Source: Promethearchaeota archaeon
Lineage (GTDB): Archaea; Asgardarchaeota; Lokiarchaeia; Sigyniarchaeales; SOKP01
Direction of reading: 5' to 3'
DNA length: 50,054 nucleotides
Assembly (NCBI GenBank): GCA_019894975.1
Contig: JAGXNO010000027.1
Location: forward strand, 1-50,054
Shown here: one piece after another, positions 10,040 to 19,942 of the stretch
Layout: every line of letters begins with the position of its first letter
Numbering within the stretch: the stretch's first letter is position 1
Program-made: the position numbers and the translations under genes
The notes under the pieces: generated by a model
Databases searched by the model: none
What the model saw: only the letters and a program-made list of their open reading frames with translations
Told to the model about the DNA's origin: nothing

Positions 10040-10828
10040 TTATCTGTTTATTCTTTCAGAGAGTTCTTTAATCGCATAAGTAGCAACTACATTAGCATAA
10101 GTATTCGGGCCAAAACCCGCATCATATCCTAATTCTTTTGCTAATTCATTACTAATACGGGCACCTCCGCAAATTAATATAACTTTATCTCTAATCCCTT
10201 CTGCCTCTAAGAGATCTACTAAATTTGTTAAATTTTTAACATGAATCCCTTTTTGGGTGACTGTCTGTGAAACAAGTAAAATATCAGTATTTAATTCAAT
10301 CGCTTTTTTTACAAATTCTTCATTAGTAACCTGACTTCCTAGATTATACGCTTCAAACATCTCGTAACTTTCAAGACCATAATGACCCGCAAATCCTTTC
10401 ATATTCATTATCGCATCAATTCCTACAGTATGAGCATCAGTGCCAGTAGTTGCCCCTAATACAACCACTTTTCGGCCAAAATTTTCTGTTATATATTCAT
10501 TTATCTCATTCATTGAGAGTACTTCTACTTCCACCAGTTCTACATTAATTTTAGTGTAATCAACAGAATGGAGTAAGGTACCGTATAATATAAAAAAAGT
10601 AAATCCCTCATCTAATTGGGTGTGATAAGCTATGGAAGGGTCTTTTAAACCCATTTTTTTCGCTAATTCTTGGGCGGTTGCGGCTGCTTTCTCATCATCT
10701 TTTATAGGGAGAGTAAAACTTACTTGAATTTTTCCATCATTCATCGTATCCCCATACGGCCTTATATTTGTTAAATCTAGAGTTTTATCAAAATCATCTT
10801 TACTTGTAGAATATAATCCACCACCCAT
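10040..10828 (-). CDS. kamE: Beta-lysine 5,6-aminomutase beta subunit (B12-binding)
   Basis: IRPYGDTMNDGKIQVSFTLP, DAHTVG base-off B12 motif, NMKG PLP lysine, SQTVTQ. Confidence 0.95.
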   Translation of the reverse strand: MGGGLYSTSKDDFDKTLDLTNIRPYGDTMNDGKIQVSFTLPIKDDEKAAATAQELAKKMGLKDPSIAYHTQLDEGFTFFILYGTLLHSVDYTKINVELVEVEVLSMNEINEYITENFGRKVVVLGATTGTDAHTVGIDAIMNMKGFAGHYGLESYEMFEAYNLGSQVTNEEFVKKAIELNTDILLVSQTVTQKGIHVKNLTNLVDLLEAEGIRDKVILICGGARISNELAKELGYDAGFGPNTYANVVATYAIKELSERINR

Positions 10829-10829
10829 C

Positions 10830-12419
10830 TTAATTACCTCCTTTTTTTAACTCAAAACTCATTAAATCCATAAATGGGTTTATATAGTCTTTGTTTTTTA
10901 GAACTACTCCGCTTAATCCTTTACCTCCATTCATGGGTCTTTTAATTCCAGCAAAAATTCCTTGTTCAATCGTTTTAAATAACCCTTGCCTCTTTATTGT
11001 TTCCAATAAACTATAGGCTTTTTTAAGAACGCTATTTGCTCTCTTTTCCATTATTCCTCCTTTTTTAAATTCGATTTCCTCGCTAATTGATTTCATATTC
11101 TTAAAAATATAACGTGCATTTTCTATAGATAGCGCTCGATCTGACATGAAAGGTGTATGTATTGCTTCAGTCAACATTCCAAGTAAGTGTATTCTTTGGT
11201 TGGTCATAATGGTAATCAAATTGAATAAGCAATCTTGAATGTGCCCTCTGAAAATGTTCCCGGTCATAAATTTAGTAGGGGGCATATATTTCAAAGGAGC
11301 ATTTGGGAAAATTTCCCTAGCCATTTGTGCTTGTGCAAGTTCATATAAAAAGCCATTCTCTAATTCAGGATTCATTTCAAATGCATGACCCAATCCCATT
11401 TGTTCCTCTTTTAATCCGGCAAGTAAAGCAAATTGCTCATTCATGAATTCAGAGGCAAGAACAGTGTGAGCTGCTTCGAAAGCATCTGCTGTGGTCAGAT
11501 AATTATCTTCACCAGTATTAATTATTACTCCGGCATAAGCGTTTATCATTCTTGAAAAATATTGGTCTACAATCGTTCTTTTCATATTAATGTCTCGAAA
11601 TAGGATCCCATAGAGAGCATCATTAAGCATCATATCAAGCCGTTCAAACGCACCCATCGCGGCAATTTCAGGCATGCATAACCCAGAACAGTAGTTTGTT
11701 AATCGAATGTATCGTTTTAATTCCTCACCAACCTCATCTAATGCCTCTCTCATTAGTCGAAAATTTTCTTGGGTAGCATATGTTCCTCCAAATCCTTCTG
11801 TGGTAGCTCCATAAGGTACATAATCTAGCAAACTCTGAACCGTAGACCTTATTACCGCGATGACATCTGCTCCTTGCCTAGCAGCCGCTTTAGCTTGTAT
11901 GATGTCTTCATAAATATTACCTGTTGCTACAATAACATAAATGAGAGGTCCCTTTTTATCGCCATATTTTCTTAGAAATTCATTTCTTTTCTTCTTTTGT
12001 TGCGAGATGAGTGTCAGCTTTTCTTGAGCAATTATATTTACTATAGCTTTTATTTCAGAAATATCTTTTAAAGGTAGATTAATTATATCTAATTCATCTT
12101 TTGCTACTTTTTCTGCAATTTCTTGAGGTGAAATTTTAGTGTGTATTACAGCGTTTCCTATATAGGTTGCAGCTCCAGTTTCCAAACATTTTTCTTTTTC
12201 TAGTTTATCAATTAGGATGTTGGACAGTGGTACGTCAAACTCGTCTACACCATCAATACCAAATAATCTACAAATGGTTCTTTCAATTGTAGTGGTTGTG
12301 TGTTGATCTATATATTTCTGTGTCTCTAATGCTATATCTTTTGCCGCTTTTCTTGCTTTTTCAATTATCGAAAAATCTAAATTTAATTTGCTTTTCTGAA
12401 TTTTTTCCATTTCTATCAC
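10830..12419 (-). CDS. kamD: Beta-lysine 5,6-aminomutase alpha subunit
   Basis: YVIVATGNIYEDIIQA, YGATTEGFGGTYATQEN, NYCSGLCMPE, KYMPPTK; adjacent to kamE. Confidence 0.96.
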   Translation of the reverse strand: MIEMEKIQKSKLNLDFSIIEKARKAAKDIALETQKYIDQHTTTTIERTICRLFGIDGVDEFDVPLSNILIDKLEKEKCLETGAATYIGNAVIHTKISPQEIAEKVAKDELDIINLPLKDISEIKAIVNIIAQEKLTLISQQKKKRNEFLRKYGDKKGPLIYVIVATGNIYEDIIQAKAAARQGADVIAVIRSTVQSLLDYVPYGATTEGFGGTYATQENFRLMREALDEVGEELKRYIRLTNYCSGLCMPEIAAMGAFERLDMMLNDALYGILFRDINMKRTIVDQYFSRMINAYAGVIINTGEDNYLTTADAFEAAHTVLASEFMNEQFALLAGLKEEQMGLGHAFEMNPELENGFLYELAQAQMAREIFPNAPLKYMPPTKFMTGNIFRGHIQDCLFNLITIMTNQRIHLLGMLTEAIHTPFMSDRALSIENARYIFKNMKSISEEIEFKKGGIMEKRANSVLKKAYSLLETIKRQGLFKTIEQGIFAGIKRPMNGGKGLSGVVLKNKDYINPFMDLMSFELKKGGN

Positions 12420-18685: not shown

Positions 18686-18697
18686 AATTATTTAACC

Positions 18698-19942
18698 TTA
18701 CAGTAATTTCTTGGTTGCGGTTAAAGATTCATTAATCATATCCGAAGCATATTCTAAATCTTCAAGAGTATGGCGATAGCAAATATATCCATGATGGAAC
18801 GGCTGTAAGAAAACCTTACGTCTGATTAATTGCCTATAAAATTCCTCGCGTAATTTCTTGTAGAGATTTTTAGGATCGCGCTCAAATGTAATATAAGGCA
18901 TCCATGGTTCCCCGGAATAATCACAAGGAATCCCACTATCTTCTATTATATCTCTAACTTTATTAGCAAAAATACTACCCTTCTTACTAATATCTTCCAA
19001 AACATTTTCACGTTCCATTATCTCTATTGTTTTGAGAGCTGCGATCTGAGCGAGACTATTAGGAAAAAAGGTTGAACTAAGAAACACGTTTTCAACTAGT
19101 TCATCCATATATTCTTTCTTACCTGTAAGAACTCCGATGGGATATCCATTTGCCATAGCTTTACCGAATGCACCCAAATCAGGTATCACTCCAAATTTTT
19201 TCTGAGCACCACCAAGATCAACACGGAATCCGGTACGGATCTCATCATATATTAGCAAAGACCCATGTTCGTCTGCAATTTCACGGATACCTTCTAAAAA
19301 GCCAGGTTTAGGCATTTCTACTTGATGACCCCCAGGGTGACCGATAGGTGTGAGAATTATTGCTGCAACATCATTGCCATATTGATTCATGAGATGCCGA
19401 ACTTGATCTAAGTTATTGTATTCAAACTCGATAACATCTTCATATAACTTCTCAGGAATTCCTCCCTTTTGTTCAACACACCAATCATGCCAACCATGAT
19501 ACCCACATCGTAATATTTTTACTCTTTTTGTATAACTACGCGCAACACGGATTGCAGAAGTTGTAGCATCAGATCCCATTTTAACAAAAACCATCTTTTC
19601 AGCACCAGGAATCAACCCTCTCAATTTTTTAGCAAGCTCGTTTTGAACTGGTTGTGTTAATGACATGCAAAACCCTTTTTCAGTTATCTGTTTAACAACT
19701 TCATTGTCTATTTCTTCTTCTCGGTGACCGATTATTATTGGCCCATAGGCACATAACATGTCTATATATTCATTTCCGTCTACATCAATAACCTTACCAC
19801 CTTTAGCTGTTTCAAAGAATATTGGGTATTCTCCTTCCACAAAATTATATGGTCGTCTGATTCCCAATATCGCTCCTGGAATTAAACCAAGTGCTTCTTC
19901 ATAAAGTTTAAAGGTATTTTTAAGAGTTAATTTTTCAGCCAT
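18698..19942 (-). CDS. kat: 3-aminobutyryl-CoA aminotransferase (Kat; class III PLP, HemL-like)
   Basis: GIRRPYNFVEGEYPIFF, LCAYGPIIIG, GYHGWHDWCVE, FGKAMANGY, VFLSSTFFPNS and FLQPFHHGYICYRHT match my recollection of Cloacimonas Kat; it heads the lysine cluster, which lacks kal. Confidence 0.85.
   Translation of the reverse strand: MAEKLTLKNTFKLYEEALGLIPGAILGIRRPYNFVEGEYPIFFETAKGGKVIDVDGNEYIDMLCAYGPIIIGHREEEIDNEVVKQITEKGFCMSLTQPVQNELAKKLRGLIPGAEKMVFVKMGSDATTSAIRVARSYTKRVKILRCGYHGWHDWCVEQKGGIPEKLYEDVIEFEYNNLDQVRHLMNQYGNDVAAIILTPIGHPGGHQVEMPKPGFLEGIREIADEHGSLLIYDEIRTGFRVDLGGAQKKFGVIPDLGAFGKAMANGYPIGVLTGKKEYMDELVENVFLSSTFFPNSLAQIAALKTIEIMERENVLEDISKKGSIFANKVRDIIEDSGIPCDYSGEPWMPYITFERDPKNLYKKLREEFYRQLIRRKVFLQPFHHGYICYRHTLEDLEYASDMINESLTATKKLL

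Follow-up and report, generated by a model that had tools for sequence, protein, structure and literature searches.

The stretch of DNA analyzed here, referred to below as the window, is the whole of contig C95 (50,054 bp) from a metagenome-assembled genome (MAG) of a Loki-type Asgard archaeon of the Promethearchaeota. This MAG amounts to 3.93 Mb in 175 contigs, with a completeness of 95%. Eight co-oriented genes were found on its minus strand between positions 10040 and 19942, which very probably constitute a Kat-type cluster for lysine fermentation, in which a HemL-like aminotransferase (Kat) occupies the place of the ammonia-lyase Kal. The eight genes lie where an earlier note, made from the letters of this DNA, had placed them.

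Gene content of the cluster

The identity of the genes was assigned with Pfam and with NCBIfam equivalog models, using their curated cut-offs, and six of the eight genes exceeded the equivalog cut-offs. In the direction of transcription, the cluster begins with the kat candidate (18698–19942), which encodes a class III HemL-like aminotransferase of 414 aa (PF00202, 176 bits), followed by a gene for a family III (CaiB/BaiF, SUGCT-like) coenzyme A (CoA)-transferase of 395 aa (17498–18685; PF02515, 467 bits). The next genes are kce (16592–17416; NF052387, 429 bits with a cut-off of 382; PF05853, 342 bits), kdd, encoding L-erythro-3,5-diaminohexanoate dehydrogenase (15523–16578; NF052381, 275 bits with a cut-off of 200), and kamA, encoding lysine 2,3-aminomutase, a radical S-adenosylmethionine (SAM) enzyme (14198–15439; TIGR03820, 605 bits with a cut-off of 525; PF12544 and PF04055). 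The cluster ends with kamB, for the reactivase subunit of lysine 5,6-aminomutase (12441–13475; NF052386, 404 bits with a cut-off of 210), kamD (10830–12419; NF052384, 920 bits with a cut-off of 600; PF09043, 899 bits), and kamE (10040–10828; NF052385, 391 bits with a cut-off of 280; PF16554 and PF02310). All of the five core enzymes, KamA, KamD, KamE, Kdd, and Kce, were equivalogs gathered in this one cluster, and each was present in a single copy genome-wide.

No kal was found in the window, as the earlier note had observed, nor in the rest of the 3.93-Mb genome. Genome-wide, no match to the Kal model NF052388 scored higher than 15.8 bits (cut-off, 160 bits), and the model of the bifunctional Kal-Kce protein (NF052389) matched through its Kce half only.

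The intergenic gaps of the cluster measure 1–83 bp, save for a space of 722 bp that separates kamA from kamB and contains an open reading frame (ORF) of 189 aa on the opposite strand (13583–14152, +). This ORF belongs to no Pfam or NCBIfam family and is not a member of the pathway. At least eight paralogs with 37–46% identity are scattered over the genome, while related clusters do not have the ORF, which may be a lineage-specific or mobile gene that has spread recently. Both the kce/CoA-transferase/kat and the kamB/ORF/kamA junctions were spanned by contigs of independent metagenome studies, with 0–2 differences. Therefore, the gene order is real and not an assembly artifact. DNA nearly identical to positions 9500–22500 (contigs with 0–4 differences) was also detected in metagenomes labeled as permafrost and subsurface, and sequencing runs of marine sediment, produced by other studies, contained copies of this region at 90–95% likeness.

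Immediately upstream of kat lies a gene for a coiled-coil protein of 525 aa (20387–21964, minus strand) with no Pfam family. In about 14 Asgard loci, kat is immediately preceded by a gene for a homolog of this protein (63–88% identity), and in one Kal-type genome, G135, the same flanking gene precedes kal. This gene is a constant border of the kat/kal slot. The protein falls in archaeal hypothetical-protein clusters of the Atlas (Promethearchaeota and Bathyarchaeota).

Identity and distribution of the aminotransferase

The aminotransferase scored 272 bits against the hemL model TIGR00713, under its cut-off of 527. In a genome-wide profile search, this cut-off was reached by no protein; the highest score, 300 bits, corresponded to a HemL-like paralog on another contig (C120:117661–118746), and this paralog and Kat were the top matches of the genome to the HemL model. 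The G260-K261 motif, which contains the lysine that binds pyridoxal phosphate (PLP), did not vary among the aligned Asgard and bacterial homologs and matched the GK of the Cloacimonas-genus protein. A search of 1.84 billion representatives clustered at 50% identity gave a top match of 558 bits (58% identity), which carries the Joint Genome Institute (JGI) name '3-aminobutanoyl-CoA transaminase', and the next full-length match fell to 338 bits. This drop in score therefore delimits a tight family.

Relatives of kat were also searched for in a scan of GTDB species representatives. They were encoded in at least 546 stretches, and the 80 best loci were fetched for the study of their context. The identities to the window protein were 69–79% in Asgard MAGs, 61–68% in Cloacimonadota, 64–66% in Bacteroidales, and 61–66% in Elusimicrobia, and within the genus Cloacimonas an ortholog of 62–64% identity was present in 18 of 21 genomes. 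In a closed genome of this genus (2,246,820 bp in a single contig), the homolog adjacent to a thiolase gene aligned with the window protein over 414 aa with 63% identity and zero gaps. The characterized Kat CLOAM0809 likewise adjoins a thiolase, CLOAM0810 (Perret et al., 2011; PMC3149608), and is probably this same protein. The two Kats assayed in that work are about 65% identical to each other, so the window protein is comparably close to a characterized Kat.

A tree of 89 rows was built by a quick search, with support from the Shimodaira–Hasegawa-like approximate likelihood ratio test (SH-aLRT) and without bootstrap; its relatives were the 80 best matches only. The Kat family was split from the HemL-like outgroups with a support of 99. 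The 18 Asgard rows formed one clade (99), which was nested in a clade of 52 rows (99) together with Cloacimonadota, Bacteroidales, and Elusimicrobia, and this quick tree suggests that the Asgard kat would be of bacterial origin. The HemL-like protein of the genome itself (C120), included as an outgroup row, was placed inside the ingroup with a branch length of 9.16, an artifact that was ignored. Among the 80 fetched loci, 45 (15 of them Asgard and 30 from many bacterial phyla) have kat next to genes of lysine fermentation (kce, kdd, or kam). The product of 18698–19942 is thus a candidate Kat, with a predicted 3-aminobutyryl-CoA aminotransferase activity (EC 2.6.1.111).

The distribution of kat and kal was then analyzed in 151 Asgard genomes sampled evenly over the phylum. 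A match above the NF052387 cut-off was counted as a true kce, a match with E ≤ 1e-120 as a Kat ortholog, and a match above the cut-off of its model as Kal. True kce was present in 20 genomes, 18 from the family of the window and two from the sister family. Among them, 14 contained a Kat ortholog, five contained Kal, and one contained a kat cut by the start of its contig; that is, kat was present in 15, kal in five, and both in none, and each of the two genes was located just upstream of kce. That all 20 genomes follow this either/or pattern argues strongly, on comparative grounds, for a substitution of Kal by Kat in archaea as well.

In the tree of Kce and Kdd, the five Kal rows were scattered among the Kat rows, which required five changes, at least four of them forced by well-supported branches. 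A single Kal clade was rejected by the approximately unbiased (AU) test, with a log-likelihood difference of 336 and a p-value of 3e-47. Therefore, within a single archaeal family, kat and kal have replaced each other, or have been lost differentially, on several occasions. The basal Asgard branches of this tree and the bacterial outgroups were of the Kat type. The cluster had been described in the earlier note as belonging to a rare type, which does not agree with the number of stretches that encode relatives of kat; among the sampled kce-bearing Asgard genomes kat is the majority form and not a rare one.

The variant with Kat was described in Ca. Cloacimonas acidaminovorans and in digester Bacteroidetes (PMC3149608), and these systems share with the window kamA, kamDE, kdd, kce, and the HemL-like aminotransferase instead of kal. 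In the Bacteroidetes contig, kat lies in the kal slot beside the lysine genes, as it does in the window. By contrast, the host of the window is an Asgard archaeon, its cluster carries a family III CoA-transferase instead of atoAD, and it has no MutS-like kamC. The genome of the window also contains candidates for Hbd and crotonase, which were not found by the authors in C. acidaminovorans.

Lysine catabolism in this group of archaea was already known, as the earlier note had pointed out. The supplementary gene table of strain MK-D1 (Imachi et al., 2020; PMC7015854) lists kamA, kamD, kamE, kdd, kce, and kal, together with a MutS2-like gene and family I CoA-transferases. This strain belongs to the same phylum and has the same backbone of kamE, kamD, a kamB-like gene, kamA, kdd, and kce. 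However, in MK-D1 kal (DSAG12_00569) adjoins kce, a MutS2-like kamC lies between kamD and kamB, and subunits of a family I 3-oxoacid CoA-transferase were assigned to the pathway, whereas the window has a family III enzyme. The route of Clostridium and Fusobacterium (Kreimeyer et al., 2007, cited through PMC3149608) coincides with that of the window in its first four steps and in the enzymes for them; it eliminates ammonia, whereas the route of the window would transaminate 3-aminobutyryl-CoA, and crotonyl-CoA would not be a direct intermediate. No paper on lysine fermentation of the Kat type in Asgard archaea was found in the literature that was searched. A known variant of the pathway is thus extended to archaea, and this is not a new kind of system.

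Two explanations that would remove the archaeal Kat were weighed against this assignment. The aminotransferase might be a true HemL, or another class III transaminase, placed beside the lysine genes by chance, as the names of its top NCBIfam and PDB matches, glutamate-1-semialdehyde aminomutases, could suggest. The low score against TIGR00713, the drop in score outside of the family, the ungapped alignment with the probable characterized Kat, the position next to kce kept across Asgard archaea and many bacterial phyla, and the mutual exclusion with kal make this highly improbable. The other explanation is that the contig contaminates the bin and that the cluster is bacterial, which is more improbable still. 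The bacterial type of the pathway genes and the nesting of the Asgard Kat clade among bacterial sequences would fit with it, as would the contamination of the bin, but the SNF2-family helicase of the contig found its best matches in genomes of the same genus (67–69% vs 52–65% in other genera), and so did KamD (81%). A Ras-family small GTPase of 175 aa, typical of Asgard genomes, is also encoded on the contig (37332–37859, +; PF00071, 154 bits). In addition, the cluster and the same archaeal flanking gene are present in many independently assembled Asgard MAGs, with the cluster located once at 627 kb of a 913-kb contig. The contig is Asgard and not bacterial. Mis-binning was also considered, given that Kat is 72% identical to the Kats of the same genus vs 78% to those of another genus, and was rejected, as the helicase and KamD were best matched in the same genus. 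A grouping with HemL and a bacterial contig were the outcomes named in the earlier note as contrary to its proposal of an Asgard Kat-type cluster. Neither was observed: the protein lay within the Kat clade, apart from HemL, and the contig was archaeal.

Some observations weigh against the reading of the cluster as a Kat-type system. The contamination figure of the MAG is 8.55%. KamC (NF052383), the MutS-like ATPase of the reactivase, was not found above its cut-off in the cluster or in the genome. The thiolase-adjacent protein of the genus Cloacimonas was equated with CLOAM0809 from its context and not by name. Moreover, 16 Kat-like loci of Desulfobacterota type, forming one clade, had no lysine genes nearby, as is the case of the kat-like gene of strain NaphS2 (PMC3149608). 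Membership in the family is, therefore, insufficient by itself to fix the substrate; the window aminotransferase falls outside of this clade.

The best match to KamC in the genome, with 132 bits against a cut-off of 300, was a MutS-like gene at the end of a contig. Within the 151-genome sample, KamC was above the cut-off only in two genomes of family f2, and among the fetched Asgard loci only in L017. In the window, kamD starts 21 bp after kamB, with no kamC in between. KamB has been retained but has diverged, with 27–34% identity to bacterial KamB. The reactivase pair of KamB and KamC is thus not present, and the traits particular to this lineage are the insertion of the CoA-transferase gene and the missing KamC.

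The mislabeling of this gene by automated pipelines, anticipated in the earlier note, was indeed observed, with homologs carrying JGI names such as 'glutamate-1-semialdehyde aminotransferase/aminomutase'. As kat is routinely labeled as HemL or as a generic aminotransferase, metabolic reconstructions can miss lysine fermentation and wrongly credit an organism with tetrapyrrole synthesis. Published reconstructions of tetrapyrrole synthesis in Asgard archaea that list HemL (PMC11193907) may be counting such HemL-like genes.

Predicted pathway and the CoA-transferase

The following route, with its enzyme activities, flux direction, and end products, was predicted from gene content. KamA would convert L-lysine into beta-lysine, and KamDE, dependent on vitamin B12 and PLP and aided by KamB, would convert beta-lysine into 3,5-diaminohexanoate. 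Oxidation and deamination by Kdd would give 3-keto-5-aminohexanoate and NAD(P)H, and Kce would use acetyl-CoA to cleave this product into acetoacetate and 3-aminobutyryl-CoA. Kat would then transaminate 3-aminobutyryl-CoA with 2-oxoglutarate as the acceptor, and acetoacetyl-CoA and glutamate would result. Glutamate dehydrogenases encoded elsewhere in the genome would restore 2-oxoglutarate, and thiolases would split acetoacetyl-CoA. The products could be acetate and H2, or acetate and butyrate by means of Hbd, crotonase, and Bcd-Etf.

Candidate genes for these later steps were detected. Two 3-hydroxyacyl-CoA dehydrogenase genes lie in the window (26573–27547 and 27645–28487), about 7 kb away from the cluster. 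The genome gave 25 matches to the crotonase family, 14 to acyl-CoA dehydrogenases, 12 to thiolases, and four to glutamate dehydrogenases. An EtfB/EtfA pair, whose EtfA has a ferredoxin domain, adjoins a fragment of an acyl-CoA dehydrogenase gene. An ADP-forming acetyl-CoA synthetase-like gene and two genes for NiFe hydrogenase large subunits were also present, and no protein of the genome was above the cut-off for Fdh-alpha.

The CoA-transferase gene begins 12 bp past kat and stops 81 bp before kce. Its product covers positions 1–366 of the 366 of the PF02515 profile; it belongs to family III and is not an AtoAD enzyme. It stayed under every NCBIfam equivalog cut-off, the best being that of succinate-glutarate CoA-transferase (NF052585; 395 vs 750 bits). 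The nearest solved structure is succinate-hydroxymethylglutarate CoA-transferase (SUGCT; PDB 9br6/9br7), with 390 bits, an end-to-end alignment, and the catalytic Asp169 kept; unlike SUGCT, the window protein has a kat/kce context with no dicarboxylate substrate. The order kat–CoA-transferase–kce was also found in L009 (80% identity) and, to judge from contigs of matching length, seems to occur in at least a dozen Asgard contigs from metagenomes. The remaining genomes sampled from the family did not show the insertion, and most Asgard Kat clusters are without it. Family I CoA-transferases are also encoded in the genome, as three subunit pairs, one of which lies beside an acyl-CoA dehydrogenase and a crotonase. 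The activation of acetoacetate is the sole step of the pathway otherwise lacking a gene in the cluster, and the CoA-transferase most likely activates the acetoacetate released by Kce, which is a guess from gene position only. Two distant Asgard homologs (54–56%; L093 and L094) were inspected for a clue to the substrate, and discarded, as their neighbors were unrelated (Old Yellow Enzyme, M20 peptidase, and aldehyde dehydrogenase).

Two further alternatives concern the end products and the CoA-transferase. The earlier note had proposed that, with Kat in the place of Kal, lysine goes to acetyl-CoA and acetate and not to butyrate, and that the reductant must leave as H2 or formate, in agreement with syntrophy; in its fullest form, with all of the carbon taking this path, the use of lysine would be obligately syntrophic. 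In this direction, crotonyl-CoA is skipped by the Kat reaction, NAD(P)H is formed both by Kdd and by glutamate dehydrogenase (PMC3149608), genes for NiFe hydrogenase large subunits are present, and the cultured Asgard archaea are syntrophs (PMC7015854). On the other hand, the genome encodes Hbd-like, crotonase, acyl-CoA dehydrogenase, and Etf proteins, the Hbd pair within the window itself, and therefore its gene content does not force acetate as the only product; moreover, part of the acetoacetyl-CoA was proposed to be reduced to butyrate in Kat organisms (Perret et al., 2011; PMC3149608). The exclusion of butyrate is thus doubtful. As for the reductant, the hydrogenase genes make a release of H2 possible, which would not be required, and the part of the proposal that concerned formate found no support in the search for Fdh-alpha. 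The alternative for the CoA-transferase is that it acts on dicarboxylates of the glutarate/succinate type, or on another acid, and is co-transcribed for an unrelated or side reaction. This is a serious possibility, although somewhat less probable than not: the closest characterized relatives of the protein use succinate with hydroxymethylglutarate or glutarate, family I pairs are already available in the genome, and most Asgard Kat clusters do without the gene, whereas its tight placement between kat and kce recurs in a sub-lineage, the step of acetoacetate activation has no other gene in the cluster, and the cut-off for succinate-glutarate CoA-transferase was failed.

Two linked ideas go further and are regarded as unlikely: that the SUGCT-like CoA-transferase is a new kind of acetoacetate activator that replaces AtoAD in this lineage, and that the repeated exchange of kat and kal in their slot between the flanking gene and kce is an adaptive redox switch. 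If true, the switch would set a redox-balanced fermentation (Kal, with butyrate) against one with extra H2 (Kat), tuning the metabolism to the presence of a syntrophic partner.

The transaminase and lyase routes differ in redox balance, and models for the origin of eukaryotes rest on what Asgard archaea ferment and on whether H2 is released. Many Loki-type genomes would break lysine down by means of the transaminase, unlike the lyase route listed for the single cultured strain.

Neighboring genes

In four loci of Desulfomonile/Syntrophales type (L064, L072, L074, and L085), the Kat-like gene has no lysine genes around it and adjoins a family III CoA-transferase 31–32% identical to that of the window. 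This pairing may represent a separate module for the activation and transamination of beta-amino acids.

A class I SAM methyltransferase of 235 aa, with no role in the known lysine pathway, is encoded between kce and kdd in many Asgard clusters of both the Kat and the Kal type (for example, L009:13346–14053, L010:12151–12861, and L024:13430–14140), and is absent from the cluster of the window. A methyltransferase of 236 aa encoded elsewhere in the window (29733–30443) was considered as its ortholog and rejected, since the two are not orthologous.

The contig is rich in genes of amino-acid catabolism, which encode an ornithine/aspartate carbamoyltransferase, an amino-acid kinase of the carbamate type, another two class III aminotransferases, and an M20 peptidase (1085–2017, 4068–4976, 6007–7281, 31907–33220, and 33235–34506). 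The surroundings of the lysine cluster look like an amino-acid degradation island. Additionally, the gene for a fusion protein of 920 aa (43217–45979), with a ferredoxin domain, a pyridine-nucleotide-disulfide oxidoreductase domain, and two CCG domains similar to HdrB/D, adjoins those for an aldehyde:ferredoxin oxidoreductase and for a 4Fe-4S protein (46146–48080 and 42246–43127). This neighborhood may correspond to electron-handling machinery.

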